Notes under the pieces: generated by a model
Databases searched by the model: none
Told to the model about the DNA's origin: nothing
The model's input: the letters and a program-made list of their open reading frames with translations, nothing else
DNA from: Candidatus Cloacimonadota bacterium
GTDB lineage: Bacteria > Cloacimonadota > Cloacimonadia > Cloacimonadales > TCS61
Assembly (NCBI GenBank): GCA_021108315.1
Contig: JAIORE010000354.1
Location: forward strand, 27,919 to 91,918
Length of the DNA: 64,000 bases
Reading direction: 5' to 3'
Position numbers and translations under genes: made by a program
Shown: positions 5,955 to 49,693 of the stretch, piece after piece
Numbering within the stretch: position 1 is the stretch's first letter
Layout of the letters: each line of letters begins with the position of its first letter

Positions 5955-6006
5955 CTTATCCTCCAAAATTTTTTTTGCTCAATTATTAAGAGCTTACCAC
6001 TAATTA

Positions 6007-6022
6007 AGCAATTGAAATACCA
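6007..6022 (-). promoter_or_regulatory. Candidate sigma-54 (-24/-12) promoter upstream of the 813-aa T9SS cargo gene
   Basis: The minus strand reads TGGTAT-TTCAA-TTGCT-TA. GG and GC are at canonical spacing, and the TTGCTTA -12 block is the same as in the two stronger promoters at 25341-25356 and 37528-37543. It lies ~55 nt upstream of the ATG at 5954. The -24 element is weaker (TGGTAT). Confidence 0.4.
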
Positions 6023-6652: not shown

Positions 6653-6687
6653 ATAAAAAAATCCCTCACTAATAATAATGAGGGATT
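6653..6687 (-). terminator. Rho-independent terminator of the 703-aa T9SS cargo gene
   Basis: A 9-bp stem AATCCCTCA (6660-6668) pairs with TGAGGGATT (6679-6687). On the minus-strand RNA the hairpin is followed by a U-run (plus-strand A-run 6655-6660). It lies 21 nt after the stop at 6708. Confidence 0.7.
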
Positions 6688-8819: not shown

Positions 8820-9382
8820 AAAATCCTCCAAATATCAGAATATAATTAATGAGTTTTGCAAAATAAAGTGTTGTGTCATCCTGAGCATTTCATTTTGCAT
8901 TTCTCTTGAAGGAACTCTGATTATATTGAGATTCTTCAGGAGAATATCTCTGTTGGATTCCTCAGAAAGACACTTTATTTTTATTTTGTTGAATCCTTTT
9001 GCTCTTGTTCCCAAGTTCCTGCTTCATTTTAGTTTCGCTAAGCAGGGGCTTAGCCTATTATTTCGTTACCAAACTGGGGTCGAGCTTCGCAGGTCTCCTT
9101 TTGGTCGGCTGGGAACGAGAATCAGAAATTTAAAAACTCGATAGAACTCATTCTTCTAATTATTAAAGCAAACTTCATTCCATCAAAAAAAGTTTAATAA
9201 TTTAATTTTATCTTTAAGTATAATCATAATTTATGAATTTTACTCAGGAAATTTTTTCAAATTATAGTGTTCCTTAATTGTTTCATATATTTTTTAAAAC
9301 GATATAAATAATATTCTAAGATGACTTCTCACCAATAATATCAGGCATATTATGTGGTGTACACTTGTTGTTACAATTGTTT

Positions 9383-12300: not shown

Positions 12301-12673
12301 GAAAATCCTTAACGATGAACTGTTTAACATATTCTTTTACTAAAAAAGGTTTAGCTTCATTGAATCTATTTTTAATATCAGTTTTTATAGTCTTTTCAAT
12401 CTCTATCTTTTCCAGAAACTCAAGAAAATCTTTATTTGTAACATTGGATATGTCACTATTATCGGTTTGGTAGATAACATAAGAATTTTGAAGTTCGCTC
12501 AGTTCATTGAAAAGGGAAGTTGCGTGATATTTAGACGATCTTTTTAACATAAGATTAACGTCTTTTGAAATAATTTTTTTAAAATTTTTTGATGATTTTA
12601 TCGGTTTATCAAAAATCAGAGATACATCTCTAAAAAATTGTTCAGGATCGAGAATAAAAACCGATTCATCCAA
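9383..12673 (-). CDS. Sigma-54-dependent transcriptional activator (bEBP) with a long TPR-like N-terminal region and a GAF domain; no receiver domain
   Basis: The AAA+ sigma-54 interaction module has Walker A GPTGSGKE, ESELFGHTKGAFTGA (GAFTGA loop) and LFLDEIGDM. The C-terminal Fis-type HTH is GNILQASKQANISRTQLYRILH. A GAF-like segment (...RAVFFEF...TAVCYPLIINHEIKGVIYSD) precedes the AAA+ core, and ~600 aa of helical TPR-like repeats come before that. The TTG start lies 2 nt after the kinase stop. Confidence 0.9.
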   Translation of the reverse strand: MDESVFILDPEQFFRDVSLIFDKPIKSSKNFKKIISKDVNLMLKRSSKYHATSLFNELSELQNSYVIYQTDNSDISNVTNKDFLEFLEKIEIEKTIKTDIKNRFNEAKPFLVKEYVKQFIVKDFQQKEEDSQNELVEFLALVELQVPFTLIVEMWENWQQLFQKAINSKLISIQGNSLIFTGKKTKTQKVPQKLMQRALQKTQKLNLNLISTQIEFLLTNQIKALKHFNLHTFELIEKEYYSSALEIFEWIQNRHRIKDLPINLQKRKAFLYRKCLFLQKSVELYESIEQKLSGIELATVLSDKATVLHEQQKYLEAIEIHKETAEIFHKNNKINEYLRTLNNIGASYFLIKKYKDAKETFKQLLKLSNENNKAQYITLSYLNLTEIFKQVGEWKKCLHFAKNTLELGRKYKKLSIQVVADLSIIYANFALGNIENLPEMILEVSNTKDIKQNIQRYIDILVKFLYISKFTDQLNSSEYADEIEKNYSQIEDDELQIEMFFYYYHRAEFLKCTQYYHKIQKKYPIIKAIFTADKKNMINYLRELAIEGDVDKYLYYATQIVYSGYFLKYEELSNEIKNYLQLNSYKPLEMLLFKKNHNPTMHSALPIFWEIINLIHGDVEFEKTMKAVLQGILKISGLERAVFFEFQNGNLQAKQGFYGNDNELDITDLKVSKTILKETIQLGQIRFLTNLQEDVQFDIHSSILGLGLRTAVCYPLIINHEIKGVIYSDAKGDKEFEKEEKSILEAIFVQACSALGKSLLFENLKRESEILQYSGVKNEFSEIIGKSPQIMEIFSLMKMVGEHNVNVLITGPTGSGKELIAKALHREYAKNAPFVAVNCAAIPENLLESELFGHTKGAFTGAFANKRGKIELANNGTLFLDEIGDMPMTLQAKLLRVLQERIVIPVGNSNEIPVSIRVITATNSDLEEKILVKEFREDLYYRLKVIKIDIPNLSERKSDIPLLIHHFIEKFNNKFNKNIQGVSLKALHNLKNNEWKGNVRELENEIEKAVLLCKTDQIDVDIIKEIVEDSSFSIMDELPGNWKEYQKYKNRIISTLDRNFAKQLVKSHKGNILQASKQANISRTQLYRILHTVDTK

Positions 12674-17246: not shown

Positions 17247-20200
17247 CTATTTCCTCGTTCCTCTGATCGCTCCAGTATTTGCAGTAACATAGTAAAATTT
17301 GTTTGTAGCAGGGATTGTTTTATTCCAAGATAAACCGGAAATATTTCCCTGCTCCAATATCCAACCTCCTGCGGGATCATCAGAAGAATAGACTTTGTAG
17401 GAATCTGCCCCTGTTACCGAATCCCAAGTTAAGGTGACATCATCCCCAGAAATTTCGATGGTTAAGTTTGCTGGAGCATCTGGAGGAGTGGGAGAGATTC
17501 CTGAGCCGTAAACGGGAAGCAATTGATCATCATCACCTGAAATAACTATTTGAATGTTTCCATCGTAATTCTGTATCTCAGTTGGTGAGAAAGTTACGTT
17601 ATAATCAAAACTTTCTCCGGGAAAGAGATGGTAAAATATTGAATTCCTTAAAATTCTTTTGGATGAACCCGTTCTGGTTGGGAAATCTTCTTCAACCGTA
17701 TAACCGGTAGGAGTTGTAATCTCTCCATCTAATTCCAGCGTTCCGGTGTTTTCAATAGTAAATTGTTTTACATCATTAGCTCCAACAACTATTTCTCCAA
17801 AATCCAATGAAGAAGGAGTAATCGTCATATCATAAGTTCCCACACTCAAAACAACGGGAATATTATCATAAGGATTGGAAGTATCGTTGCTAAGAAGCCT
17901 GATGTAGGCATAATAATCTCCATCAGAAAGCCCTGTACTATTGAATCCAACCGTGACATCAACATCAGGAGTTCCCACTGGAATAGTTCCATTTATATTG
18001 TATCCTGAATCCAGCGAAAGCCAAGAATATATCGGAGAAGAATCTCCGGTAATAGTTACATCGTCAATATTGATTCCGCTTCCCATCATATTATTACGAA
18101 TTCTGAAAGCAATTTTGATACTTTGTCCGGCATAAGCTCCCAGTGACAAACCTTTGAGAATGTAAACTTCCGCAAATTCATCTTGAGAATAGCTTTTAAA
18201 AGTAGTCCAATTTGATCCATCTGTAGAAATTTCAATATCAAAATATGCATCATCCCAATAGAAACTGAGATCATAGGCTCTTATCCAATATTTTAGGATA
18301 CAATCTGCTGTTGCTGTGAAGAACGGTGTGATAATACAAGCATCATCAACCATCATTGGATCTGCTAAGGCACTGTTACTTCCACTATAAGAATTCATAC
18401 TACTTTGTTCCCAATTTCCCCAAGTATCAAGGGATTCCAAACTCCATCCGGTAGGTGGAAAACCGGATTCAAAACCTTCATCTATGATCGTAGTGACCTC
18501 TCCTTCATATTCAACATAAGCGAGATAATCAATATCAAGATTTCCATCATTGCCTAGAGCGAGATTTTCATTATTAGATTCCCCAATCTCCAACACTTTA
18601 TTAAATACAGCAGGATCATAGGTTAATCTTGCTTCTACACCACTTCCAATACATTGAACAAGATAGTCATCAAATCCGGCATTATGAGAAATCACGAGAT
18701 CATTATCATAATTCTGCATAACAATAGGTTCAAAAATGACTTCATAATCTACCATATTTCCAGCAGGAATATCAAAAGAGAGAACATTTCGGAAATTTTT
18801 GTTAATCACCTTATGAGTTTTTGTATTTCCATCTCTGTAAATTATTTCTGAGGCGGTATATCCATCAGGAGTTGTGAAAGAACCGGTAAGATTTACCCCG
18901 CCGGAATTAGAAATACTCATCATCAATGTATCTGCAATTCCCACAAAAACATCACCAAAAATAAGGGAATCGGAAGGGATATATTCAATGAAAATTTCAA
19001 TCTGCGGACCTGCAATCCAATCAATGCGATTATACATATCTTCATCATAAGATTCTCCAGCAAAATCTCCGGTTGCACCTACAAAATCAACATTCCCAAC
19101 ATCAACATTCTTCATTACATTGGCATAACTTCCCCAAGTATTTTCTGGGAAGATAGCGTTAGTGATCTCCATATCCTGAGAATTATCAATTGTGAGCAGA
19201 TAACCACCACCTGTTCCATTTGTGAAAGTACAATTTGTAAATTCATAATCTCCATTAGAGCCAACTGTAGCACCACTTTTGATATGAATTCCATTATAGC
19301 CGGAGTTTTCAAAGATAGTATTTTCTGCTAAGATATTTCCGCTACTTTCTATATCAAAGATATGATATGCATTGGGATTTTCATTCTTTATATTTGCATT
19401 ATTTTCTAATGAGCCCAATGTTTCCAGAGTTCCACCACTACTCACAGCAATGCTTTTGTATTCACCCATTGTGAGAATTGAGCTTCCGTTCAAAGCAAGT
19501 GTTCCGTAGCTGATATTTAGATTGCCGGTACAATCAATATTTTTCCCATTTGCATCTAAAGTTCCATCATTTATTGTGAGATTTCCGTCATTCAAACAAA
19601 CAAGATCTGAAAGTAAAGTAAGAGTTTCGATTGCTCTATTCTCATTTTCGGTTCTTGCATCTGATTTGCTGATGATAACATTATGAAAGAAATTTGAACC
19701 ACCGATTCGATCAAAAGTGGCTTCTGCTGCTCCATCAAAATATACTGTGCCCATATTATCAAACCAACCACTATCACAAATGTAAACATCTTTTTTGAAT
19801 ACGTGATTCATAGCAGTCCAAGGATTGTACCAAACTCCATTTTGAATATTTAGATCACCTTCGATGGTTAAATCTGTATATGGAACAAAATTACCCCCTG
19901 TTTTATTAATTACGAAACTTCCAAATTGATAGTTACTTCTATTCACATATAAATTTTGTGCTGAATTGCCATCAAAAGTAACTGTAGAATTTCCCGGTAT
20001 AAAGCTAGTATAATTTGAATTATCATTATTGTAGTCATACAAATTTTGTCCGATGTTGATATTTACACCATTCACACCATCAATAATACGCATTGCTGTT
20101 CCATTTTGCATTGTAAGATTATGATCAATATCCAATGTAGAATTTTCATTGAGGAGCAATTTCCCATTGTTTATATTAAAATCATTTTCTACTTGAACTG

Positions 20201-23200
20201 TAATACCGGCAGCGAGATCAGTGTAATAAAGTTCACCTGTATATCGTTGCAATTCAAGATTATAGAATGTTTCATCAGATAATATTGTACCTTCATCATT
20301 CCCTATTAATCGAACCGTACCAGTGCCTTCCACAAAACCGAATGAGCCACGATTATTCGTCCAATTTCCACCAATTTTGACTAATTGGTCGTCAGGATCC
20401 AGAACACCCTCAACTCCAATGAAAATATCATTCATTACAGTTAGCTCATTTCCCGAGCTATTCAATGTTCCATCATCTATATAAAGATCATTATTAATTG
20501 TAATATCATCAGAAAGAGAACATACTCCGCTATAATCATATCTATAGATCATCAAATTATGAAAGTAATTCGTAGAATCCATCTCAATTGATGCAGAAAC
20601 AGGGCCATACATCTGAATAGTTCCACCTGTTGGTTGAAACCCTCCGGGAAAATTTGCCTGAAATCCCCAACCAACCCTAATAACTCCACCATCCATATTG
20701 GGAGTTGAATTAAACCTTATACCTTCTCTGCTAATTTGTAAAAAACCGTTATTCAAGATATTCAAAGTTCCTAAAAAACGCATATAATTCCCTGTGTAAG
20801 ATTTACTTAAGGTGCAGTTTCCACCATCAAGAGTCATTTCTCCGGTAGATGAAAGCAAAAAATCATCACTAGCTGTAAAACTTTCATTATCAATATTTAG
20901 ATGTCCATTACATTCGACATCGGATTCAACTGTCATACTACCCGATAATAAAGTTAACAAGCTACCGTTATCCATAAATAATTCTCCACTCACATCACAA
21001 TAGGCAGCTTGAAATTCATTATTCTCATTTAGAATTAGATCTCCATAAATAACCGTATGAGCAGAGTGAGATGTATCTCGTTTCAAATAATTTCCGGTTT
21101 TGTCTACAATCACATTTCCAAAGGCAGCATTATCAAATTCTTCAATAAACATATCTGAAACTCCATTCCCGGTGAAACGAACCGTATTTCCCGCTCCCAA
21201 TGTTGCATTACAACCCTCTTTGAAATACCAATCTCTTCCAATAGAGATTTCGCCAGCAGTTATTACTTCTGTTGAGCCACTTCTCCAAACAACATCATTG
21301 GTAATATCAATAAAATCTAAAGGGTTAATCATCTTTAGAGCTCCGTAAATTGCTAAACTACCTCCAATTTGAAGAGTATGACCAGCCAAATTGAACTGAC
21401 CGGAAGTTATTTCCATATTACCATTGATGATAAGATCATCGGATAGTCCAACCAATCCACTTCGAGTATTATTAATTTTCTCTTTTTTTCTTCTGCGGTT
21501 GTTAATTTTTGATTTCGCTTTGCGGAAAACTTGCTTATCAGAATTTCTGGATACTGTTTTGTTTATCACAAGGTGATGTAGTTTATTTTCCCAACCAAGA
21601 TCAATAGTTTCATCATCTGAACCATAGAGATGAATATATCCACCTGTAGGAGCAAAATCATGACGATATGAGGAAAATCCACCATTCATCTTAATAGTTC
21701 CACCAGAAATAACGTGTGAAAAAGAATGTCCATCATCAATATGAATTCCCCAATCTTTCACATCCAAAGTCCCGCCTTCCATATAAAGATAGGCTTCATC
21801 AGTATGAGCAAACCAGCAATCTGTTGCTCCTCCGTGAATATTAAAATTACCATCATAAATAATAATATCTCCATTAAAATCTATGTAATGGCTGGCATCT
21901 TGATGAAGGTCAATTTGACCGCTTATTAATTGATATGAACCCACAATATTGTGATGATAAAGATCATTTGCAGTAAAAGTTCCACCATTTACAGTTAAAA
22001 ATCCATCTTCCCAATTGTAACTATCACAAGAAACCGTTGAACCGGATGGGATAATGAACTCTTCAGCAGATTTGTCAATTATCAGTTCGTTAAATTGCTC
22101 TCCATAGCAATATTGATCATCGGTGCCATTGAAGGTTACAGCTCCATTAGCTTGTAAGAACCCGAGAAGTGGACCGGTATTATTTGTCCAATTTCCTTCA
22201 ATATCAATATCATTACTATTGGTTTGCAAACTTCCGAAATCAATAAGTAAATCACCCTTAATTGTAATATTAGTATTTAAATCGACAATGGTTGGTGAAT
22301 TTATAATAACATCATTAAAATAATCTCCAGAAGTTGAATTTATGTCTTGAAATGTACCGGAAAAAATAAATGTGCTTACATCTAAATGAAAATTACCATA
22401 GCAATTTATATCTCCTTTTAGAACTAAACCACAATTCGGAAAGGGATTTGTTAATGTTGAAATTGCTCCAATAGTTAAATCTCCATTAATATGAAAATCA
22501 CCGGAAAATTCAGAACCATTGCCGACTTGAGCATTTGTTTTAACAATATATAAATTGTTTACATAGCAAATTGAAGATTTTGACCATATCCAGGAATTTG
22601 AAGTACCAAATAATTTCACAGTTCCGTTTTCCATTTGAACATCTGCCCCAGAATCAAATCCAAAGTTTCCATATACATTGATGGTTGCCAGTTCAGCAGC
22701 TATAATTGAAGTCGAACCGCTATTCCATTCCATAAATCCCTGAATTGTAACATTACTATCATCATGCGTCATATTGAAGACACCATTTATGATCATATTG
22801 TCGTAAACATTTAAATTATATCCTGTAAGAGAAAGTGTTGCACCGGTATTTATAGTCAAATCATCCTGAATCACAATATCATTAAGTATAAATGCTCCCT
22901 CAGTTGAATTAATATCTAAATCATAGAAATAATCCCCTGAATTTGAGATAATTAGCTGGTTAGAACCGTCAAAAGTAAATGTTCCCGTAGCGAGATAATA
23001 ATTCCCATAACAAAGAAGATCACCTTTTAAGACGATACCACAATTTGAATATGGATTAAGTAAGGTAGAATTTGCTCCAATCGTTAAATCTCCATTAATA
23101 TCGAAGTCACCCGAAAATTCGGAACCATTACTCACTTGGGCATTCGATTTCAAAATTTTTAAATTGTTCACATAACTTACTGAAGATTTTGACCATATCC

Positions 23201-24926
23201 CCGAATTTGAACTTCCAATAAGATTGATTGTTCCATAAGTAATTTGAACATCCGCTCCGAAATCAAATCCAAAACTTCCATGCACATTTATATTTGCCAT
23301 ATCAGAAGTTATAATTGCAGTTGAACCACTATTCCATCTAATATTCCCATGAACTTCAAGTTCACTGCTTCCGCTAGTCATATTAAATCCACCATATACT
23401 TGCATATCCTCATAAACATCCAAAGAATATCCAGTAAGTGTAAGGATTGCTCCGGATTCAATATTAAGGTTCTTGCATTGAGCATTATTCAAAAAAATGA
23501 AAGGTGAATTTTGAGATACTGAGGGAATTATCACATCATCATCAAATGTAGGAACATTATTGAATAACCAGTTTCCTGCATTATGCCAATCATTTGAGGA
23601 TGCACCTGTCCAAAGGCATACACTTGGATCTGAGGGATAATCAACAAACAAAGTTGGATCACCCAAAATAAGGTTTCCATAAAACCAATGTACTTGATCA
23701 TAAGGTGCTTCCGGAGCATCAATATTATCTTGCCACCATTCATTAAAAGCCTGTCCAAATGTTTTACTTTGTGATAAGGGTTCATAAAAATCTGCAAAAT
23801 TGAGCATACTACCTGTTTTTGTTGTACCAATTACGTTTAGGCAATGGTAATTATCCATTAAATACATATTTCCCATACAATTATTATTTTCAAAGCGAGC
23901 ATTGCTACAAGCAAACAGATTATAGAAATTTGCAACCGGCTTTATTGTGACAATATCTGAATCCAATACGTGAGCGTAAGTTGTATCTGACCCGTCTACT
24001 ACTCTAAAAGAGTGATGATTAGGACTGCTGTGAGCCATTACTTGAATAAATTCATAATTCCCGATCAGCCTGTTATCCATATAATCATCAGCATTTGTAG
24101 CTTGAGAAGTATTTACCAACACAGTGTTTGAATAAACATTTTCCAATGCACTCTGATACGTTGAACCACTACTTTGCCAATCATCATCTACATAAACAAG
24201 TCCAACATCAGAAGTAATTGCTATTCCATTTCGGAAATAATGATTCCGATTAAAATAATCTATTATCATTTCTATTTCTGTTTTTGATGAAATATAAAGA
24301 TTATCTCCTTTAATCCTGCCTAACCAAATATCCGGATGTATATTCCCCGTGTGTTCATCATATATTCCATCAAGATCGTTATCTACCCACACTCCATCCA
24401 TATCAGAATAAAATAATTCACAGGGAAAATCTGCCCAAACACCATTTGGTACTCCAAGAGAATCATGTTTTTCATATTCATACCAAACAGAAGGTAAGTG
24501 CCCGATTAGAATAGCACCAACAATATTCTCACTATTATAATAATTCAAAATAATAGCTTTTAAAGCTTCACCTGTATTTCCAGAAACACTAACTAAAAAT
24601 GAACTGAGGTTTTCATTTGCTAAATCCTGTTGATAAGTCAAGAGAACAGAATTAATTTCACTTTCAATAAACTCATCGACTAAAATCAAAAAATTTTCAG
24701 TATCTTTTGCCTTTGAGCTTACATAATTCAATTCTTGATATGAATTTGCTTTAGTTAACGGATGTAATTTCCTATATTCCTCAAATGTAATGTTGGGAAA
24801 TTGTTCCGGATCTGGGTTAGTTGTCATAATCGTCGTTTCAAGATTTTCTTGTATTCGTGATTGTGCACTGATTTGAATAATACTACCCAAAATTAATATT
24901 GTTAAAATAAAAGTTCCTATTTTCAT
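17247..24926 (-). CDS. Giant secreted surface protein (2559 aa): gingipain/C25-like cysteine-peptidase head, beta-helix-like repeats, Ig-like and jelly-roll-like domains, C-terminal FN3-like module with basic tail
   Basis: The ATG at 24926 follows GGAGGA. Signal peptide MKIGTFILTILILGSIIQISA. Clan-CD-like landmarks are GAILIGHLP, WLGRIKG, VMAHSSPNHH and NLFACSNARF. The motif CLWTGASSNDWHNAGNW..NVP follows. There are two 203-aa tandem units plus further G/N-rich beta-helix-type repeats. Ig-like domains follow FGDV.VG...F.I.N.G..L.G.ITTP.GY. One EGFESGFPPTGW...INIDDVTITG domain is present. The C-terminus is ...LTWDSVTGADSYKVYSSDDP...KFYYVTANTGAIRGTRK. No T9SS CTD. Confidence 0.85.
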   Translation of the reverse strand: MKIGTFILTILILGSIIQISAQSRIQENLETTIMTTNPDPEQFPNITFEEYRKLHPLTKANSYQELNYVSSKAKDTENFLILVDEFIESEINSVLLTYQQDLANENLSSFLVSVSGNTGEALKAIILNYYNSENIVGAILIGHLPSVWYEYEKHDSLGVPNGVWADFPCELFYSDMDGVWVDNDLDGIYDEHTGNIHPDIWLGRIKGDNLYISSKTEIEMIIDYFNRNHYFRNGIAITSDVGLVYVDDDWQSSGSTYQSALENVYSNTVLVNTSQATNADDYMDNRLIGNYEFIQVMAHSSPNHHSFRVVDGSDTTYAHVLDSDIVTIKPVANFYNLFACSNARFENNNCMGNMYLMDNYHCLNVIGTTKTGSMLNFADFYEPLSQSKTFGQAFNEWWQDNIDAPEAPYDQVHWFYGNLILGDPTLFVDYPSDPSVCLWTGASSNDWHNAGNWLFNNVPTFDDDVIIPSVSQNSPFIFLNNAQCKNLNIESGAILTLTGYSLDVYEDMQVYGGFNMTSGSSELEVHGNIRWNSGSTAIITSDMANINVHGSFGFDFGADVQITYGTINLIGSSNSGIWSKSSVSYVNNLKILKSNAQVSNGSEFSGDFDINGDLTIGANSTLLNPYSNCGIVLKGDLLCYGNYYLATGTFTFDGSNQLIISNSGDYFYDLDINSTEGAFILNDIVIQDDLTINTGATLSLTGYNLNVYDNMIINGVFNMTHDDSNVTIQGFMEWNSGSTSIIAAELATINVYGNFGFDSGADVQMENGTVKLFGTSNSWIWSKSSICYVNNLYIVKTNAQVGNGSEFSGDFHINGDLTIGAISTLTNPFPNCGLVLKGDINCYGNFHLDVSTFIFSGTFQDINSTSGDYFNDVIINSPTIVDLNTNITIKGDLLIDFGSLQTNSNDIDIEGNWTNNTGPLLGFLQANGAVTFNGTDDQYCYGEQFNELIIDKSAEEFIIPSGSTVSCDSYNWEDGFLTVNGGTFTANDLYHHNIVGSYQLISGQIDLHQDASHYIDFNGDIIIYDGNFNIHGGATDCWFAHTDEAYLYMEGGTLDVKDWGIHIDDGHSFSHVISGGTIKMNGGFSSYRHDFAPTGGYIHLYGSDDETIDLGWENKLHHLVINKTVSRNSDKQVFRKAKSKINNRRRKKEKINNTRSGLVGLSDDLIINGNMEITSGQFNLAGHTLQIGGSLAIYGALKMINPLDFIDITNDVVWRSGSTEVITAGEISIGRDWYFKEGCNATLGAGNTVRFTGNGVSDMFIEEFDNAAFGNVIVDKTGNYLKRDTSHSAHTVIYGDLILNENNEFQAAYCDVSGELFMDNGSLLTLLSGSMTVESDVECNGHLNIDNESFTASDDFLLSSTGEMTLDGGNCTLSKSYTGNYMRFLGTLNILNNGFLQISREGIRFNSTPNMDGGVIRVGWGFQANFPGGFQPTGGTIQMYGPVSASIEMDSTNYFHNLMIYRYDYSGVCSLSDDITINNDLYIDDGTLNSSGNELTVMNDIFIGVEGVLDPDDQLVKIGGNWTNNRGSFGFVEGTGTVRLIGNDEGTILSDETFYNLELQRYTGELYYTDLAAGITVQVENDFNINNGKLLLNENSTLDIDHNLTMQNGTAMRIIDGVNGVNINIGQNLYDYNNDNSNYTSFIPGNSTVTFDGNSAQNLYVNRSNYQFGSFVINKTGGNFVPYTDLTIEGDLNIQNGVWYNPWTAMNHVFKKDVYICDSGWFDNMGTVYFDGAAEATFDRIGGSNFFHNVIISKSDARTENENRAIETLTLLSDLVCLNDGNLTINDGTLDANGKNIDCTGNLNISYGTLALNGSSILTMGEYKSIAVSSGGTLETLGSLENNANIKNENPNAYHIFDIESSGNILAENTIFENSGYNGIHIKSGATVGSNGDYEFTNCTFTNGTGGGYLLTIDNSQDMEITNAIFPENTWGSYANVMKNVDVGNVDFVGATGDFAGESYDEDMYNRIDWIAGPQIEIFIEYIPSDSLIFGDVFVGIADTLMMSISNSGGVNLTGSFTTPDGYTASEIIYRDGNTKTHKVINKNFRNVLSFDIPAGNMVDYEVIFEPIVMQNYDNDLVISHNAGFDDYLVQCIGSGVEARLTYDPAVFNKVLEIGESNNENLALGNDGNLDIDYLAYVEYEGEVTTIIDEGFESGFPPTGWSLESLDTWGNWEQSSMNSYSGSNSALADPMMVDDACIITPFFTATADCILKYWIRAYDLSFYWDDAYFDIEISTDGSNWTTFKSYSQDEFAEVYILKGLSLGAYAGQSIKIAFRIRNNMMGSGINIDDVTITGDSSPIYSWLSLDSGYNINGTIPVGTPDVDVTVGFNSTGLSDGDYYAYIRLLSNDTSNPYDNIPVVLSVGTYDMTITPSSLDFGEIVVGANDVKQFTIENTGTLELDGEITTPTGYTVEEDFPTRTGSSKRILRNSIFYHLFPGESFDYNVTFSPTEIQNYDGNIQIVISGDDDQLLPVYGSGISPTPPDAPANLTIEISGDDVTLTWDSVTGADSYKVYSSDDPAGGWILEQGNISGLSWNKTIPATNKFYYVTANTGAIRGTRK

Positions 24927-24973: not shown

Positions 24974-25306
24974 TTAAATGAATTCTTTCTTCAATTCTCT
25001 TAGCATCACAGGATTGTGCAAAAGGGTATATTTTCCTGTTCTTACAATAGAAATTGCTTCTTCAAAAGGTTTATCCGAAGAAACATAGACCAATATATTG
25101 TCGAAATTATCATTTATATATTTTATAAAGCCAATATCTGAAATTGAGGTAATATTTATTAAAACAGTATCTATACAAATCTCTTCAACTATTTTAATTG
25201 CGTCAAGTATTGTTTTTGCAAAATATATTTCTGAATCTAAATTTTGGATCATATCTTCTATTTCTGATGATTGAAATTCGTTTTGATTTATTGCTAAGAT
25301 ATTCAT
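24974..25306 (-). CDS. Stand-alone pseudo-receiver (CheY-like fold with the acidic pocket replaced), 110 aa
   Basis: The ATG at 25306 follows AAGGAG; the upstream ATG at 25372 would overlap the promoter. The protein aligns to CheY-type receivers by eye. ILAINQNE occupies the ..DD.. position, TVLINITS the phospho-acceptor D position, VYVSS the T/S position, and LLHNP the KP position. The paralog at 37151-37495 keeps the same substitutions. Confidence 0.55.
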   Translation of the reverse strand: MNILAINQNEFQSSEIEDMIQNLDSEIYFAKTILDAIKIVEEICIDTVLINITSISDIGFIKYINDNFDNILVYVSSDKPFEEAISIVRTGKYTLLHNPVMLRELKKEFI

Positions 25307-25340: not shown

Positions 25341-25356
25341 AGCAATAATAATGCCA
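25341..25356 (-). promoter_or_regulatory. Sigma-54 (-24/-12) promoter of the pseudo-receiver / 2559-aa gene cassette
   Basis: The minus strand reads TGGCAT-TATTA-TTGCT-TATA. This matches the TGGCAC-N5-TTGCW consensus at exact spacing and lies ~35 nt upstream of the ATG at 25306. Confidence 0.7.
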
Positions 25357-25423
25357 GAAGAATTATTTGCATATTATATAAAGAGTTAACATTTTAGAGT
25401 TTATTAAGAAAGTTGATATTAAT

Positions 25424-25437
25424 AGCCGATATCGGCT
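25424..25437 (-). promoter_or_regulatory. Candidate enhancer (UAS) site 1: palindrome AGCCGATATCGGCT
   Basis: A perfect 14-bp palindrome ~75 bp upstream of the -24 element. The same block, TTGATATTA.T..CCGATATCGGCTG..TGAAAAGT, is conserved at 37603-37635 while the flanking sequence has diverged. Confidence 0.55.
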
Positions 25438-25512
25438 GGTGAAAAGTTAAAACAATGAGTAATTTTATCATAACAGCCTTTTAAATAAGGCAGTTAGTTT
25501 AAGAAATAATTA

Positions 25513-25551
25513 CACCCACCGAAATCGGTCAGCAGCCGATTTCGGTGGGTG
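25513..25551 (-). promoter_or_regulatory. Candidate UAS sites 2+3: 16-bp inverted repeat CACCCACCGAAATCGG-N7-CCGATTTCGGTGGGTG
   Basis: Each arm contains a CCGAWWTCGG decamer (25519-25528 and 25536-25545) of the same type as site 1. It lies ~165-195 bp upstream of the -24 element and is conserved at 37702-37734 at the same distance. It could also fold as a hairpin, and a T-run follows on the plus strand. Confidence 0.5.
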
Positions 25552-25573
25552 TTTTTTTGTATTTGTATAGTGC

Positions 25574-26033: not shown

Positions 26034-29000
26034 CTATTTCCTATTTCTTTTCTTCCCTGATCTTCCAATCACTCCGGTATTGGCAGACACATAATAGAAT
26101 TTATTCGTAGCGGGAATTAGTTCATTCCAAGTTGTTTCTATAATATTTTCCTGCTCAACTGACCAGCTTCCAATAGGTGTGTTCGGATCATCAGAGGAAT
26201 AGACTTTGTAAGAATCTGCTTCAACAACTTCATCCCAATTCAAAACAACTTGAGTTTCATTGACAGTTATTGTAATATTTAACGGTGCATCCGGTGGAGT
26301 TGCCGAAAGAGTGGTAAATGTTACCTCGTTTCCGTAAGCAGTTCCAACACTATTTGTAGCATAAGCACGTACATAATAGAAAGTTTCGGGATCGAGACTT
26401 GTGAGCGAACTGGTAAATGTTCCTGTCCCGCTGCTGTCTGTGGTGTGATCATCTGCTGTAGTGGGACTTGCTAAAGTGCTCCAGCAAACTCCCCGAGCTG
26501 TAACTGCAATTCCACCGTTTGCTGTGATATTTCCGCCACCGGTTGCTGTGGTTTGTTCGATGGCTGTGATTGCATCTGTGGTAATTGTTGCAGTTGTGAT
26601 TCCCGTTCCGCTGACAGCTACATTCTTGGTTACTGCTCCCGAGCTTATATGACTTATATTGCCGGAATAAACAGTGGCTGTTGTGGGTGAAAATCTTGCA
26701 TAAATTGTGGTTGTGGGAACTGATCCGGCGGTTGGAGTTAAAATTACCTGAGAAGAAAATGCTCTGCTGGTTTTTGAATTCAAGTTATTGCAGTTTGTTC
26801 TCATAGTTGGTGTTGTTGAAATTTCAAATCCGGTGGGTGCATCAATGGTAATATTTCCAGTTAAATTGCTTCCGGAAACAGTGTAATTCTGTTCTGATGA
26901 ATTTGTATTTATGGGAATATCTCCGAAATCCGGTAAAGAAGAAACTGAAACTGTAATTATTGGAGTGGCAGCAGTTGTAGTAAATGTAACCTCGTTTCCG
27001 TAAGCTGTTCCGACAGAATTAGTTGCATAAGCTCGCACATAATAGAAAGTTCCCGAATCGAGACTTGAGAGTGAACTGACAAATGTTCCGGTTCCGCTGC
27101 CGTCTGTGGTGTGATCATTTGCTGTAGTGGGACTTGATGAGACACTCCAGCAAACTCCTCTTGCTGTAATTTCACCATTTCCATCGTAAGTAATCTCTCC
27201 ACCACCTGTAGCTGAATCGGTTTCAATATTAGTGATACTATCTGTAGTAACATCAGGTAATTCAACGCCGTCTCCACCAACATCTACCGAAGCTCCCTGA
27301 GAATTCATACTGCTATGCGTGATTACATCAATATGTTTAAAAGCCATTTCAGGATGGAAACGAACATAAATTGTAGTTTGGGGAACTGTTCCGGTTGTCG
27401 GAATCAATATGATACTATTTCCAAAATCTCTGCTGCTGTTGATTCGTGGCATTCTTTCGGATTCATTTATTTTTCTACTTTGCCTGCTTGAGGTAAGCGA
27501 AATTTCAAATCCCCAAGGTGCGTAGATTTCTATATCACCTTCAAGATTTTCACCAGAAACAGTATAGGATTGTTCAGCAGAAACACTATTTACAGAAACT
27601 TCTCCAAAATCTGGTAAACTGTCCTGAGAGACAATAATCGTTGGACCAACAGTAATGAATGAAACCTGATTTCCATAAGATATTCCATAAAAATTTTCTG
27701 CATAAGCCCTTACATAATAAATCATTCCCGGCATTAGAGTTTCGAGATTACCGCTAAAACTTCCTGTACCGGAACCACAATTAATGAAATAATCAAAAAT
27801 TGTCGGTTCTTCCATTTCACTCCAGCAAATTCCTCTCATATATACTTCACTTCCTCCATCAGCAGTGATATTACCACCACCAGTGGCAGAAATAGTAGTA
27901 ATGTTTGTCACTGCATTTGTAGTTACAGTGGGTGATGTAGCACCGGTTCCATCGGTTTCAATAAGAACATCACTTCCTTGGGCATTATGAGTGATGACGA
28001 TATTTCCACTATATTCCACTGCTTCTGTGGGAGCAAAAGTCAAATCAAATTGCTGCATATCTCCTGTGATAATTTCATAATTTAGGGTATTTCGAGAAAG
28101 TTTATTTACTCGTTTGCTATTATTATTTCTATAAACCTGTTCGGATACTGAAAAACCTGCCGGAGTGGTGATTGTTCCGATTAAACTCATAGTGCCGAGG
28201 TTTTCAATAGCAAACATATTCGTAAATTCCTCACCAACTTGAATAGCACCAAAACCAATCGAATCGGGATAAACTGATATTTGAGGATAACCTACGTTTA
28301 ATTCCACCATAACCCAATACTGTGGCATTTGCGGATCATTGCTGTCTATTAAAATATTTGCCATATACATACATTCGGGAAGATCTGTGGAATCAAAGCC
28401 GACATTGATAATATCTGCTGTTCTGCCGGATTCGACAGTTCCGGTTACAGTTTCGCCACCATCTAAGCTCAACCATTGATCTGTAGGAGCTGATGATCCG
28501 GTAATTTCAACATCATCAATATAAACAAAATCTGCATCTCCAGGAACATTATACATTCTAAAAGCAACTTGAATACTGTTTCCATTATAAGCCGAAAGCG
28601 ACAAAACTTCCTGAGAATAAACATCAGTAAGCGTGGAAATATCAATTTCATCTATAAAACTCCAATTTGTTCCGTCAGAAGATACTTCCACACCAAAACT
28701 TCCACCAGACATTGCCCATTCATCTGTTTTGATATAATATGTAAGCTGGCAGTCATCGGTAGCAATGAATGAAGGAGTTATCAATCGTGCATCTTCAATC
28801 ATCATTCCATTTGCAGAAGCACAATACATTCCGTTATTGGGATACATTCCATCCTGCATCCAATCTTCTGTTCCGGCTACAATTTGCGATGTCCAATCCA
28901 TTGGAGGAAACATCATATCCTCAAAACCGGAAGAAACAAGAATATCCCTATTTCGAGAATACATAATTGAAGCAATGTAGTTCAAATTACTATTTCCAGT

Positions 29001-32000
29001 ATTATCAATGGTTAAATTTCGGGAGGTGGTAACATCAGGGTATTGTTCCTGAAAAATGAAATCCGGTGAAGCCATAATTTCGGGAGCTCGTCCAACACCA
29101 GTAACGGAAATCAATTCATCATCTCCACCCATACTATGAGAAATCGTTATATCACTATCGAAGTTACCATAATAAGAAGGCTCAAAAGTAACATTATATG
29201 TCCAAATGTCTTCAGGTAACAGACTATAGGAATACCCTTCCCGCTCAGGATTATTTTCGCTATTTCTTGTAGGGAAATCCTCTTCGACAGAATATCCTTC
29301 AGGTGTAGTAATTATCCCTTCAATCCACAAAGTTCCGGTATTTTCCAAAGTGAATTGCAAAACAGCATTTTCTCCCACATTCACATCACCGAATTCCAAC
29401 AGTTGGGTAGAAATTGACATTCCGTAAACACCTACTTCCAAATCGACATGAATATTGAATAAAGGATCTGATGTATCATTGCTGACTGTTCTGATATATG
29501 CCCAATAAAGATCATCGGAGAGTCCGGCAGTATCATAATCAACCTGAATGGCTACATCGGAAGCTCCGACTGCAATTTCGCCTTCGACAAACATTTTGTT
29601 ATCCAATGAAAGCCAAGAATAAAGAGGATTTACATCACCCGAAATTTTTACATCATCAATATATACTCCATTCCCCATCATATTCTCGTAAACTCGAAAT
29701 GCAACTTTGATATTCTGACCGGCATAATCTCCCAAAGAAACACATTTAAGTGTAAATTCATTGCTTAGATTTTCCTGATCATAGCTTTTCACTGAAGTCC
29801 AATTTGTTCCGTCGGTAGAAACCTCAATCCAAAATTCTCCAATATTACTTCCTTCGGGGGACATATATTCATCAGCTTTTAACCAATACTTTAAGATGCA
29901 GTTTTCCGTTGCAGTAAAAAAAGGTGTGATCAAACGAGCATCATTTACAAACATATAGCTTGCTTCCGCACATTTATTTCCGGTATGATAGTTCCATTCG
30001 TTTTGCATCCAATCTCCATAACCACCAATCGAGTGCAGAGTCCAGCCGGTCGGAGGGAAATTATTCTCGAAACCTTCCTCAAGAATTGTGTTCATATCGT
30101 TTGAGTATTCAACATACGCAAAATAATCAATATCAAGATTTCCCTCATTTCCAAATGTCAATAACTCGGAATCAGTTTGTCCGGGAGTTATGGTTTTCCC
30201 CATCGTTGTAGGTGAAATGGTAAATATCGTTTCCACTCCTCTTGCGAAACATGGAATTACAACATCACCTCCTGCCGCATTGTGAGTAATAATGATATTA
30301 TCCGAATAATCCTGTAATAAAACCGGTTCAAATATTACATTATAATTCGCAAATTCTCCAGCCGACACAACAAATGAAATACTGGTCCTATCACGAGAAA
30401 CTATTGTTTCCGCTGCATTTTCAAATTCTGATGAATTGTTTCTATAGCACATTTCCGTAACCATGAAACCGTCTGGATAACTGATGGAGCCGACAAGATT
30501 TCTTCCGCCCGGATTATTGATGCTTATTCCCAATGAATCAATTGTCCCGACAAACTGATCGCCAAAATCGAGAGTATCTGGGGAAGCTTCCATTATAGGC
30601 GGAGGAGCAGCTATTCCGTTTCCAGTCAGAAAGACAGTTTCGTCATCTCCACCAGCATTGTGGGTGATAATTACATTTCCGCTGTAAGTTTGAACTTCGG
30701 TGGGTTCAAAATCAAGAAGGAAAGTATTCGTAACGCCGGCATTAACAGAATATGTTCTTACATTTCTGTCGCTTGATTCACGCTGATCGTCTCTGGAACC
30801 GCCCAATATAGTGAAACCAACCGGAGTTGTGATTGTGCCGGAGAGAATTGCTCCGCCATCATTTTCAATATAAAATCCGCTTCTGCCAGATTGATCTACA
30901 ATGACATCACCAAAATCCTGTGAGGGAGGAGTAACGGAAATATGCGGTCCCATCGTCCAGGTAACCCTGCTGGAAGGATCATATTCATACGATGCTCCGG
31001 CAAAATCTCCGGTGGCTTCAATGAATTCAACTATTGCGGTAGAAGTGGGATGTTTGTACACATTAAAATTACTTCCCCAAGTGTTTTCAGGAAATATTGC
31101 GTTGTTGATTGTAAAATCCGCAGTATTATTAACTCTTAATAATGAACCGCCACTTACTCCATTTTGGAAAGTGCAGTTGTGGAAAGAATGGACAGGATCT
31201 ACTATTGCCGAACTCCAAAGATACACACCGTTGGAAGTCATGTTTTGGAAAATAGTGTATTCGGCACTAATTGTCCCATTATTTTTGATGTCCAAATCAT
31301 AATAATTTCCGGCAGCATAACATATAATATTCACTTCATTTCCGGCAGAACCGATTGTTTCTAATGTGCCACCCGAGTTCACAGATAATGTTTTATCATT
31401 TCCGACTTTGAGAATCGAGCCACCATCTAAAGCGAGAGTTCCTTCATTATTAATTGTTACATTTCCTGTGCAAGCTGTTTCATTTCCATTTGCGTTCAGA
31501 ATTCCTGCTTGAATTGTTAAATCACCATCCCAGATTGTTCGCCAGCCGGAAAGCAAAGTCAATTCTCCATCATTTTTACTTGAACCTGACGGCTCCTTAT
31601 CAACAATGATATTATTGAACATACAAAGACCAGCCTGCTGAAAAGTTGCATTTGCAGAACCGGAAAAAATTACAGTTGAATATCTGGCACTCCACCCGCC
31701 TTCACAAATTGCCACATCGCCGAGAAAATTGTGAGTCATTCCATAGGCATGATCACTCCAATAACCATTCGTTACCGATAAGTTTCCACCAATTGTAACA
31801 TTTAAATACGGTATGAAATGACTGGAAGATTTATTGATAATTAAGTTATAAAACTCCGGTTGAGACCAAACTGTGGAAAATATTTGCTCTTCTGTCCCAT
31901 CGAAAGTTACCGTAGAATTTCCGGGATGAAAGCTGGTGAAATCATCATTATCATCGTTATTATCACTCCAATGACCACCAACGTAGATGTTCACACTATT

Positions 32001-35000
32001 TTCATCATCAAATATCCTCATTGCAGTATCATTCTGTAAAGTCAGATTATTATCCACATCAAGAGTAGAATTCTCGCGAAGCAACAATTTCCCATCATTA
32101 ATGAAAAAATCATTTTCAACGTGAACTGTCTTTCCGGCTACAATGTCTGAGTAACTCAAACTTCCGGTTGTTTTTTGCAGAGTCAAATTATAAAATGTTT
32201 CATCTGATAAAATATCTGATTCATTCCCACCGAAAAACTTAACAGTTCCGCTTTCTTCATAGAAACCTGCTGTTCCACGCAAATTTTCCCAATCTCCGGC
32301 AACTAAGATCAAACCGGAATCAGAATCCAAACAACCATCTGTACCAATAGAAACATCATTATTTACGGTAAGATTATTGGAACTTGTCCGCAAAACGCCA
32401 TCAAGTAAAGTCAGGTTATTATTGATTACACAACTATTGGTTAATGTTATGGAACCCGGAGTTCCTGTTTTATTGATAATAACATTATTAAACCAATTAT
32501 TATTTGCGAGATAAATTGTAGCACTGCGAGTTCCAATAAATTCTATCGTTCCGGTATCTTGTTGGAAAACATCAACACTTAAAGCTCGAAGCCCCCAGCC
32601 GATTTTAATCGTTCCACCAAGTTGCTGGAAATTTGATGCGGCACCGAACTGAATTCCATTATAGGTTATTTGAAAACTACCGTCATTAATAATGGTCGTT
32701 CCCGAAAATGATTTATGACTTCCTTCATACGGAGTATCAATTATAAAGTTTCCGTTATTTATAACCAATTCGCCTGTAGAATACTGACCGAAATCATCCG
32801 CAATAGCGAGATTACCACCATTCATGGTAACTTTTCCATGTATAAAAAGATCTTCCGTGGTAACTTCGGCATCAGCATCAATAATTAGTTCAGCATCAGC
32901 ATAAATACTTATCCTTCCGGAAATATCAAGTTCATTTTCGTTTACATCAAAAATACTATTGGGATTAATCAGTAAATCTCCGGTTACGGTGACAGATTGG
33001 TCACCGTAATCACTAATTTCACAGTAATAATCGTCTTTATCTATTGAAATAGTTCCAAAGCTTGCTGTAGCAGAATATGAAAATATTCTTGATCGATTGC
33101 TTCCTTCAAAGAATACAGTATTGTCAGTACTAAACTCACAATTGCATCCATTGGAGAAAAGCCAGTCTCTTTTTGTATGAATTTCTCCATTTGTTATATT
33201 TGCAGTAGAATTCAGTTGCCAGTAAAAATAATTATTTACTGTAAGCTTATCATCAGGATCAGTCATTGATAAAGTGCCGAATACTTCCACATCGCCACCA
33301 ACATTGATCGTATTGCCATTCATAGTAAATGTCCCATCCTGAATAATAAGATCACCAGCCAAATTAAGATCTAAAGTTGAAAGTACATTTGCATTACCTG
33401 TTTTATTGATAATAATATTTCCAAAATCATTTCCTGCGTGACAAGTAATCGAGGACACGTTTGACCCATATAATTCAAAAGTAACATTTTCAGGAGAAAA
33501 ATCGTTTCTCTCACACAAAATATTTCCGATAGTGCGAATTCTCCCTCCATTGATATTTTCTGTAAATTGGTGGATAGATGAATTAACAATTCTAATTCCA
33601 TTATCTTTAAAATCCAGAATACCTCCGCTCATGTCAATCCTGGCATTCCCATATTGGGGCCAATAGCTATCGCGGGTACCTCCATAAATGTTAAAAATCC
33701 CACCTTGAATGGTCAGTTCACAAAATAAATCAATACATGCCCCTGTTCCCTGATGGAAATTTAATTCACCGTCCATAACATAAATTCTGCCTTCAATTCC
33801 ATTAGCAACTATATCATTAGCTGTAAATGTTCCACCATCGATGTATAATGCTCCGTCAATCCAATCGTAACTCTCGCAAGTGGTAATACCTGAAGGAAAT
33901 TGTAATACACAATAATGTCCATCAAGAACGATATTATTGAATTCTTCTCCATAGCAATATGATTGATCGTCTCCATTAAAATATACAGTGTTTGTCCCTG
34001 GGTTGAACCAGCCGGATCCTGCATTATTTTGCCAATTTCCACCAATATAGATATCATGGTTATAGGCTAACAATCCGCCGCTATTAATAGTCAAATCCCC
34101 ATGAAGATATAACTCAGTATTTAATCCAATAACTCCGGAAGTACTAATATCAAGACTATAAAAATAATCTGTAGAACTACAGCTTAAATTCGAATGTCCA
34201 CCAGTTAGTTTAAATGTTCCTGCATCAATTTCGAAATTGCCATTATTTGTGAAAGCATCTCCAATTTCTATTGTTTGATATGAGCTTGAGTGAAACATCG
34301 TTCCTGTTCCAATTGTGAGGTCTCCCAGCATAATCCAGTCCTCCGTGGAAAAAATATGATAGTCAAATACGCCCCCGTTCTTATTTATTATCACATTATA
34401 AAATGTTGTATTGGAATCATTATTAACAAGATAAGCATTCTGATTTGAGACAAAATAAACAACTCCACGATCCATTTGAACATCTGCTCCATTATAAATT
34501 GTCCAATTATTATAACATACAATCATGCCATTCATCAATTCAACATTCACAATTGACCCTTCGTGGCTGGTGATGTTCCCCTGACACTCAACAGAACTGG
34601 ATGAACTTGATAATCTTAGTTCACCAAAAATATCCAAATCTCCGTAAACGTTAAAATATTCATCTTGAACTGTTACCATTGCCCCACTTTCTATTGTTAA
34701 ATTTCCACTATATGCCGTATCATTTTGAATAACAGGATTATATGTACAACCGGATGGTATTACAAGATCATGGAAATTTTCAGGAACAGCATTATTTGAC
34801 CAATTTCCAGGTTCATGCCAATCAGTGGAAACATCTCCTTCCCACAATCCGGCAGGATAGATAGAAAGGGTAAAATCTCCGGAATATAAACCACTATTTG
34901 ACACAATACATAACCCGTAATTTCCCGCTTGAGTAGGAGAATAATGAAATGCTTCATCTGCTCCTGCACCTATATTCTCTGATGAAGCCACACTATTATT

Positions 35001-37150: not shown

Positions 37151-37495
37151 TTATTTATATTGTTTTCTGAATTTTTTCTTAAGCTCTCTGAGCATCACAG
37201 GATTGTGCAAAAGTGTATAATTACCTGTTTTCATAATTGAAATTGCCTCTTCCATAGGTTTATCAGACGAGATATAGATTAAAATACTTTTGAAATTATC
37301 ATTGATATATTTAATAAAACCAATATCAGAAATTGAAGTAATATTTATTAGTACTGTAAATATGTTATTTTTTTCAATTATTTTAATTGCGTCAAGTATT
37401 GTTTTTACAAAAAATATTTTTGAATTAATATTTTTAATCATATCTTCAATCTCTAATGATTGAAATTCGTTTTGTTTTATAGCTAAGATATTCAT
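37151..37495 (-). CDS. Stand-alone pseudo-receiver, 114 aa (paralog of 24974-25306)
   Basis: The ATG at 37495 follows GAGGAG. The sequence MNILAIKQNE...TVLINITSISDIGFIKYIND...ILIYISSDKP...YTLLHNPVMLRELKK has the same Asn/Gln-for-Asp and Asn-for-Lys pattern as the paralog. Confidence 0.55.
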   Translation of the reverse strand: MNILAIKQNEFQSLEIEDMIKNINSKIFFVKTILDAIKIIEKNNIFTVLINITSISDIGFIKYINDNFKSILIYISSDKPMEEAISIMKTGNYTLLHNPVMLRELKKKFRKQYK

Positions 37496-37527: not shown

Positions 37528-37543
37528 AGCAACAACAGTGCCA
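37528..37543 (-). promoter_or_regulatory. Sigma-54 (-24/-12) promoter of the pseudo-receiver / 3681-aa gene cassette
   Basis: The minus strand reads TGGCAC-TGTTG-TTGCT-TATAA, a perfect consensus at exact spacing, ~33 nt upstream of the ATG at 37495. Confidence 0.8.
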
Positions 37544-37611: not shown

Positions 37612-37625
37612 GACCGATATCGGCT
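37612..37625 (-). promoter_or_regulatory. Candidate UAS site 1 (GACCGATATCGGCT)
   Basis: The core CCGATATCGG (37614-37623) lies ~75 bp upstream of the -24 element. This is the same position and flanking block as 25424-25437. Confidence 0.55.
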
Positions 37626-37701: not shown

Positions 37702-37734
37702 CCACCGAAATCGGACAGTAGCCGATTTCGGTGG
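37702..37734 (-). promoter_or_regulatory. Candidate UAS sites 2+3 (CCACCGAAATCGG-N7-CCGATTTCGGTGG)
   Basis: The decamers CCGAAATCGG (37705-37714) and CCGATTTCGG (37722-37731) are at the same distance from the promoter as in the other cassette. No upstream minus-strand gene needs terminating here, which argues against a purely terminator role. Confidence 0.5.
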
Positions 37735-49691: not shown

Positions 49692-49693
49692 TA

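Follow-up and report, generated by a model that had tools for sequence, protein, structure and literature searches.

Here we describe a regulatory module that occurs twice in a 64-kb stretch of DNA (hereafter the window; G+C content 32%) from a Candidatus Cloacimonadota bacterium, contig JAIORE010000354.1. The module consists of a sigma-54 (RpoN) promoter and, upstream of it, three copies of the palindromic decamer CCGAWWTCGG at fixed distances. Each copy of the module precedes a cassette of two genes, one encoding a small pseudo-receiver protein and the other a giant immunoglobulin (Ig)-like protein. We regard the sigma-54 promoter as very likely to be real. The best explanation for the three dyads, and one that we consider probable, is that they form the enhancer of this promoter. 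Most likely this would be an ordinary activator-binding enhancer, and thus one more instance of a familiar regulatory architecture, from a phylum that has been little sampled.

Results

The promoter and the decamers are confined to two intergenic regions

Pattern scanning of the window identified exactly six CCGAWWTCGG sites, where 0.07 are expected and none of 100 shuffled sequences reaches six. The promoter pattern TGGCAY-N5-TTGCW occurs exactly twice, both times on the minus strand (0.09 expected; 1 of 100 shuffles reaches two). All six decamers and both promoters fall within two intergenic regions (Table 1), such that every decamer in the window is associated with a promoter. The promoters point leftward into small minus-strand open reading frames (ORFs) that have a good ribosome-binding site and an ATG at 25306 and 37495. 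A preliminary description of this DNA had listed the duplicated promoter, without its strand, and the decamers, and had noted, by eye, no further CCGAWWTCGG in the window; all of its coordinates are correct and the scan bears out the count.

The six decamers are not independent events, because the two regions are paralogous copies and because the distal decamers are reverse complements of each other, forming the arms of one hairpin. Therefore, the independent content is one promoter, one proximal palindrome, and one hairpin with decamer-bearing arms. Even so, this content is far beyond chance, and it is confirmed by conservation in the diverged relatives described below. DNA homology between the cassettes spans about 590 bp at 79.6% identity (24979-25565 versus 37168-37750) and ends about 13 nt past the hairpin. 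Since the giant proteins are only about 38% identical, the unit that has been kept similar is the regulatory region together with the small gene.

The blocks and their spacing persist in diverged relatives

Four distinct sequences were compared: cassettes 1 and 2, which are paralogues in one genome, and two relatives from other metagenomes, L003 and L004, whose proteins are 88% and 62% identical and whose short contigs include only about 240 and 57 nt of upstream sequence. Five further contigs that encode the exact proteins (L001, L002, and L032-L034) are identical in sequence and add no divergence; because the sequences are identical in independent assemblies, an assembly error is ruled out as the source of the module.

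The match to the sigma-54 consensus TGGCAC-N5-TTGCW is essentially perfect in all four sequences, including TGGCACTGTTGTTGCA in L003 and TGGCATTGTTATTGCA in L004, with the GG and GC dinucleotides at the canonical spacing of exactly 10 bp. Across the four-way alignment 12 of 16 promoter columns are invariant, and the distance from the -12 GC to the ATG is 35-39 nt (35-37 nt in the two cassettes). Positions relative to the putative transcription start are numbered by setting the C of the -12 GC as -12.

With their flanks, the decamers are 14-bp dyads of the form RCCGAWWTCGGY, centered at about -100, -193, and -210 in both cassettes. The proximal 14-mer is invariant at 11 of 14 columns of the alignment, the 3' decamer of the hairpin at 10 of 10, and the A-run plus 5' hairpin arm at 20 of 23; a run of five to seven A residues on the sense strand is conserved in all four sequences. 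The two distal decamers are both essentially invariant. By contrast, the hairpin loop retains 1 of 7 columns, the extension of the 3' arm 0 of 6, and the DNA between the blocks 19 of 75, 20 of 68, and 8 of 23, which overall is given as 25-29% invariant as compared with 79-100% within the blocks. L004 has only two changes within the sites, both at decamer position 4 (CCGGAATCGG and CCGTTATCGG).

The distances are equally constrained. The distal decamers are spaced 17 bp apart in all four sequences, and the proximal decamer lies 79, 80, 79, and 79 bp from TGGCA, essentially free of indels. Between the second distal decamer and the proximal decamer the distance is 93, 91, 91, and 82 bp, so that the sole sizeable indel amounts to about one helical turn. 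The fixed distances and diverged intervening DNA noted in the preliminary description from the cassettes alone are thus kept in four sequences. The decamers show the pattern of a phylogenetic footprint, in line with the enhancer-like geometry that the description had pointed out.

Table 1. Coordinates of the regulatory elements and genes discussed in the text, numbered from the first nucleotide of the window.
Feature	Coordinates	Strand	Remarks
Sigma-54 promoter, cassette 1	25341..25356	-	TGGCATTATTATTGCT; -12 C at 25342; putative +1 about 25330; leader of 24 nt to ATG 25306
Sigma-54 promoter, cassette 2	37528..37543	-	TGGCACTGTTGTTGCT; putative +1 about 37517; ATG 37495
A/T block	25374..25387	-	AACTCTTTATATAA, about -44 to -57; kept in cassette 1, cassette 2, and L003; degenerate in L004
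Proximal dyad, cassette 1	25413..25437		AGCCGATATCGGCT (25424-25437, centre about -100; decamer 25426-25435) and adjoining conserved ATATCAA (sense strand)
Proximal dyad, cassette 2	37612..37625		GACCGATATCGGCT on the plus strand, centre about -101; decamer 37614-37623
Distal dyad pair, cassette 1	25512..25552		18-bp inverted repeat, loop of 5-7 nt; decamers 25519-25528 and 25536-25545; centres about -193 and -210
Distal dyad pair, cassette 2	37702..37734		13-bp inverted repeat; decamers 37705-37714 and 37722-37731; followed on the plus strand by GTGA and T6
T7 run, cassette 1	25553..25559	+	directly past the hairpin; equals the A-run upstream of the hairpin on the sense strand
Pseudo-receiver gene, cassette 1	24974..25306	-	110 aa; acidic pocket, phospho-acceptor Asp, and Lys all replaced
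Pseudo-receiver gene, cassette 2	37151..37495	-	114 aa, 80% identical to the cassette 1 copy
Giant Ig-like gene, cassette 1	17247..24926	-	HYDIN/VesB-type, 2565 aa
Giant Ig-like gene, cassette 2	26034..37079	-	3681 aa; paralogue of the cassette 1 giant, about 38% protein identity
Candidate enhancer-binding protein gene	9383..12673	-	TPR-GAF-AAA+(GAFTGA)-HTH; sole such gene in the window; candidate activator only

The dyads as a probable enhancer of the sigma-54 promoter

To open, a sigma-54 promoter requires an ATP-driven enhancer-binding protein (EBP), which in bacteria binds an upstream activator sequence (UAS). Such sequences generally lie about 80-200 bp upstream of the promoter and are recognizable by dyad symmetry, by the presence of usually more than one site, and by a constant spacing from the -24 element. 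The three dyads, located 100-210 bp upstream, have the symmetry, number, position, and conserved spacing of such an enhancer, and the conserved upstream DNA of roughly 230 bp contains no other conserved dyad. What is observed directly is the set of motifs with its conservation and spacing, together with a nearby EBP gene that has a GAFTGA motif. Because the palindrome at the proximal site could form an RNA stem of 3-5 bp at most, we argue that it is a protein site at the DNA level, and because the same decamer is found both free-standing and in each arm of the hairpin, that one protein recognizes all three sites. Within the hairpin, the CACCCA of the 5' arm is invariant, yet its 3' partner is invariant at 0 of 6 positions and is lost in cassette 2 and L003 without compensation; therefore it is the sequence, not the pairing, that has been preserved.

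Taken together, these features suggest how the module may work. Each cassette would be transcribed from its sigma-54 promoter, with the three RCCGAWWTCGGY dyads serving as the UAS. All three dyads, the proximal one at about -100 as well as the distal two at about -193 and -210, would be bound by a dimeric helix-turn-helix (HTH) activator, whose three dimers could supply the six subunits of an active AAA+ ring. Bending of the A/T-rich DNA in between, with its conserved block at -44 to -57, would allow the ring to contact sigma-54 at -24/-12. For the A/T block itself, a role in bending or as an IHF/HU-type site is conceivable, as is a sigma-70 -10-like TATAAT. The resulting transcript would encode the orphan NtrC-type pseudo-receiver together with the giant Ig-like protein, predicted to be at the surface, and the distal pair may double as a hairpin terminator or insulator, secondary to its sequence-specific recognition.

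This arrangement resembles the enteric glnAp2/NtrC system, in which a -24/-12 promoter has several dyad activator sites 100-200 bp upstream, as is predicted here. At glnAp2 the upstream sites nucleate the AAA+ oligomer, and the promoter is contacted via DNA looping. However, NtrC sites are dyads of about 17 bp (TGCACC-N5-GGTGCA) that are spaced by three helical turns and share a single helix face, whereas the dyads described here are 10-14 bp long, two of them being 17 bp apart as one long inverted repeat and the third about 91 bp closer to the promoter. The candidate activator also differs from NtrC in having TPR and GAF sensor domains and no phosphorylatable receiver. The NifA UAS of nifH, the Pu promoter (XylR), and pspA (PspF) are similar in their UAS about 100 bp from the start, in an A/T-rich or IHF-bound bend between the UAS and -24, and in a dependence on helix face, which is seen here as fixed spacing. 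By contrast, the motif has no relation to TGT-N10-ACA, and the IHF consensus WATCAANNNNTTR is unmatched adjoining the proximal site, where only an ATCAA core is conserved.

Several points weigh against an enhancer. The half-sites CCGA and TCGG are 6 bp apart (about 9 bp in the 14-mer), which is shorter than the typical EBP dyad of 16-18 bp, and at a separation of 17 bp the distal dyads would lie on nearly opposite faces of the helix. Furthermore, read on the plus strand, the distal element is shaped throughout like an intrinsic terminator, conserved T-run included, and an enhancer needs no such shape. Two sigma-54-like promoters beside the EBP gene (6022..6003 and 9182..9167) have no CCGAWWTCGG upstream, and because they lack the decamer, the neighboring EBP may serve those promoters instead, or as well. 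The window itself contains no rpoN gene; the EBP with its GAFTGA motif points only indirectly to sigma-54 in this organism. Finally, the comparison includes only four distinct sequences from one narrow lineage, two of them paralogues in one genome.

Alternative explanations for the dyads

The shape of the distal element suggests a different division of roles, in which only the proximal palindrome is a protein site and the distal repeat is chiefly an intrinsic terminator or insulator that stops plus-strand (antisense or divergent) transcription and, in cassette 1, works bidirectionally to stop read-through from the upstream giant gene. The stem is GC-rich and 13-18 bp long, its folding energies range from -24 to -34 kcal/mol (z -5.8 to -9.7), and an A/T run beside the hairpin is conserved in all four sequences. 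On the plus strand, the element of cassette 1 has the form of a textbook intrinsic terminator (18-bp stem, -33.9 kcal/mol, T7), L004 has the same shape, and true hairpin and T-run terminators exist in the genome, for example at 6687..6660. In cassette 1 the hairpin is also the sole minus-strand terminator-like structure between the stop codon of the second giant gene (26034) and the promoter, and its tail is T-rich. However, no plus-strand ORF, conserved promoter, or RNA structure feeds the hairpin: RNAalifold found no covariation on the antisense strand (covariation term -0.06), and an Rfam search of the whole window matched no family. The T-run is displaced to 4 nt (cassette 2) and 8 nt (L003) past a stem that has been shortened by the loss of outer pairs, uncompensated, around an invariant CACCCA. 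The stem is directly followed by a U-run on the plus strand in cassette 1 and L004, and on the minus strand in cassette 1 only; sense-strand T tails are absent from cassette 2, L003, and L004. The single stem change in L004 creates an A-C mismatch in the plus-strand RNA. Only the decamers have remained complementary, so that stem pairing has not been kept in evolution, and the plus strand, where the conserved T-run is found, is antisense to both cassettes. Nor does the element mark the 3' end of a transcription unit: no plus-strand gene precedes it, and a minus-strand gene lies upstream in cassette 1 only, with none in cassette 2 and none called within about 240 and 57 nt in L003 and L004. A terminator also leaves the identity of the decamers in the arms and in the proximal palindrome unexplained. 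We consider this explanation unlikely. Known bidirectional intrinsic terminators share with the hairpin a GC-rich stem set between an A-run and a T-run, and in cassette 1 a location between tandem units; they differ in that here the T-run is conserved antisense only, the outer stem is lost in two of four sequences, and the arm motif recurs as a stand-alone palindrome. The preliminary description had raised a terminator or insulator role for the upstream cassette, based on an inverted repeat of 13-16 bp followed by a T-run. The repeat stands, spanning 18 bp in the first cassette and 13 bp in the second, with the T-run on the plus strand in both; the role itself finds weak support in the T-rich sense tail of cassette 1, against which stand the antisense orientation of the conserved T-run and the unconserved outer stem. 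A secondary insulator role of the hairpin in cassette 1 is possible, while a conserved terminator role for the upstream cassette is not supported.

The dyads could instead be protein sites of another kind, namely operators of a non-EBP regulator (a repressor, an anti-activator, or a looping tetramer bridging the distal pair and the proximal site) that modulates the sigma-54 promoter and, ancestrally, a divergent promoter. At 10-14 bp, the palindrome has a length that is seen more typically with small dimeric repressors than at sites bound by EBPs, the variable 93/91/91/82 bp spacing keeps helical phase as in looping systems, the motif TTGACAGGA beside the distal pair in cassette 2, L003, and L004 hints at a divergent promoter, and the sigma-54-like promoters near the EBP gene do without the decamer. 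But a sigma-54 promoter needs an activator site, and the roughly 230 bp upstream offers no other conserved dyad for it; in each of the three sequences, TTGACA lacks a suitably spaced -10 element, and no candidate small DNA-binding regulator was found adjoining the cassettes. On this evidence such an operator appears improbable. We find it highly improbable that the blocks belong to a small non-coding RNA or a long 5' leader across the intergenic region, with the palindromes acting as RNA hairpins. The plus-strand hairpin with its U-run resembles the 3' end of a small RNA, and the L004 change in the distal arm gives a G-U pair on the sense strand. Against this, Rfam match and covariation are both absent, the hairpin is the only structure consistently predicted, the proximal palindrome forms its stem of only 3-5 bp, no conserved sigma-70 promoter lies upstream of the blocks in either orientation, and the strictly fixed spacing of 79-80 bp from the -24 element is a constraint at the DNA level. 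We give virtually no credence to the idea that the shared blocks are functionless leftovers of a recent duplication or gene conversion between the cassettes. The difference between 79.6% identity in the module and about 38% in the giant proteins makes homogenization of the module plausible, but the blocks and their distances persist in L003 and L004, where the surrounding DNA is 25-29% invariant and protein identity falls to 62%, and this four-way footprint effectively refutes an absence of function. An enhancer of the sigma-54 promoter remains our preferred explanation for the three dyads.

The motif TTGACAGGA (sense complement TCCTGTCAA) is located 3-8 nt past the T-run on the divergent strand in cassette 2 (37747-37755, plus strand), L003 (221-229), and L004 (35-43), but not in cassette 1. 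It resembles a -35 hexamer and may be part of a divergent promoter. A conserved sigma-70 promoter, either feeding the plus-strand hairpin or using this TTGACA, was rejected, since none of the sequences has a -10 element at workable spacing. The hairpin was also considered as a repetitive extragenic palindromic (REP) element and discarded, as the 64 kb contain just two copies of it, which share one orthologous context.

The small protein is an orphan pseudo-receiver

The small protein is identical to the hypothetical protein K8S23_13280 of a Candidatus Cloacimonetes metagenome-assembled genome, and its paralogue is K8S23_13290. Among 5.8 billion proteins, a protein search and a four-sequence profile recovered a family of five members. 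A four-member profile matched the NtrC1 receiver (PDB 1zy2) over residues 1-106 with an E-value of 9e-6 and aligns end to end with the receiver domains of NtrC1, NtrC4, and LuxO, while the Pfam Response_reg model is reached by only one of the four members. The protein does not carry the residues of a functional receiver: the acidic pair DD is replaced by QN, the phospho-acceptor Asp by Asn (VLINI), and the Lys by Asn (HNP). Because all of these are replaced, we classify it as an orphan pseudo-receiver. Its end-to-end likeness to the Aquifex aeolicus NtrC1 and NtrC4 receivers (PDB 1zy2, 1ny5, and 3dzd), which belong to sigma-54 activators, appears to tie the operon to sigma-54 regulation. In contrast to the Aquifex proteins, the receiver here is a separate protein of 110 aa without the acidic pocket, Asp, and Lys, and the EBP is without a receiver domain. 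Speculatively, the pseudo-receiver may modulate an EBP in trans.

A more elaborate version of this idea is a previously undescribed circuit in Cloacimonetes, in which a compact three-dyad sigma-54 enhancer, its distal pair lying in a terminator-shaped palindrome that also insulates the tandem cassettes from each other, would drive a pseudo-receiver acting in trans on the receiver-less TPR-GAF EBP, such that a 'split NtrC' feedback loop would set the expression of alternative giant surface proteins. We judge so specific a circuit to be quite improbable.

The fifth family member (P0005; contig L005, 713-1087) is a chimeric ORF of 124 aa that contains only the C-terminal ~50 residues of the pseudo-receiver. 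It is 84% identical over the matched ~45% of the query, and its N-terminus is unrelated and signal-peptide-like. Neither a sigma-54 promoter nor decamers are present upstream of it, and the ORF is what remains of a cassette after rearrangement.

HYDIN/VesB-type Ig-like domains are present in the giant proteins, one of which also has a Peptidase_C39-like N-terminal domain; their N-terminal 500 residues cannot be aligned between the cassettes. In both cassettes, a conserved hairpin-like segment, GTCCGGC…GAC (24931-24965 and 37085-37125, minus strand), lies between the stop codon of the small gene and the ribosome-binding site of the giant gene. This segment may be a processing site or a translational control element.

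A candidate activator encoded nearby

The only EBP gene in the window is on the same strand as the cassettes, at a distance of 12-16 kb. Its AAA+ domain is closest to that of NtrC4, and the C-terminus (…GNILQASKQANISRTQLYRIL…) has a sub-threshold match to the Fis-type HTH_8 family (E 0.004). A database search returned no orthologues; the next matches share the AAA+ part only. Its GAFTGA motif, its weak HTH match, and its position as the sole EBP of the window make this protein a candidate, and no more, for the cognate activator of the cassettes, a role that the preliminary description had suggested. Speaking against the assignment are the lack of orthologues and the decamer-free promoters beside its gene.

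Directly downstream of the EBP gene are two further sigma-54-like promoters, each before a gene for a CarboxypepD_reg repeat protein sorted by the type IX secretion system (T9SS). One, TGGTATTTCAATTGCTTAAT (6022..6003, minus strand), is 51 nt upstream of the ATG at 5954 and has the extended -12 region TTGCTTA in common with the cassette promoters; the other, TGGAATGAAGTTTGCT (9167-9182, minus strand), is about 350 nt upstream of the ATG at 8818. A motif shared upstream of both, GAAACAATTG, was not significant.

In the NCBI annotation the EBP is 1055 aa long, with a later start. An ORF for a Ser/Thr protein kinase of 291 aa (12676-13551, minus strand) ends exactly at the start of the EBP ORF in a different frame, and the two may form a kinase-EBP operon or be a fusion interrupted by a frameshift. 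A strong terminator-like hairpin followed by T7 (13672-13703, minus strand) precedes the kinase gene, with no obvious minus-strand gene nearby upstream.

Searches beyond the window

Pattern scans of genome and metagenome contig collections for the decamer module yielded only chance matches among those inspected. A scan of genome contigs for the hairpin (CCGRAATCGG-N7-CCGATTTCGG), in a collection without the source species, gave 25 matches. Inspection covered four of these, all unrelated: three fall within a conserved coding region, and the fourth is GC-rich DNA from Phycisphaerae. The remaining 21 come mostly from Xanthobacteraceae and other Alphaproteobacteria. A longer-arm scan of metagenome contigs gave one chance match in a GC-rich coding sequence and also missed the short contig of L004 itself. 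Literature searches for the decamer, and for Cloacimonetes together with sigma-54, found nothing relevant.

If correct, the enhancer proposed here would provide a defined cis-regulatory motif and a testable member of the sigma-54 regulon for the Cloacimonetes, an uncultivated phylum common in anaerobic digesters. It would further connect giant Ig-like surface proteins, along with a pseudo-receiver that is unusual in standing alone, with control by sigma-54. Because the architecture of a -24/-12 promoter with upstream dyads is textbook, the value of the module is as a local annotation and an experimental handle and not as a new principle.

Additional features of the window

Elsewhere in the window, the ORF at 49940-50383 encodes an IS200-like Y1 transposase (Pfam Y1_Tnp, E 1.6e-21). 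The gene is bracketed by a direct repeat of about 245 bp (49689-49930 and 50359-50603; 74-97% identity) that is dense in short hairpins (AACCATTAAAATGGTT, ATAATTGAAATTAT, CCCACAAATTCATTTGTGGG, and AACCGTTTCAACGGTT), and the region is directly upstream of a giant PKD/beta-helix ORF of 3987 aa (50599-62562). This arrangement looks like an insertion that duplicated the upstream region of the giant gene, or like a REP element with its associated tyrosine transposase (REP/RAYT). Inside the same 3987-aa ORF, the sequence TGGAACACCGATTTCT is found at 50973-50988 and 51213-51228 (plus strand), 240 bp apart. It was dismissed as a regulatory site, being a coding repeat that gives one-mismatch matches to the decamer.

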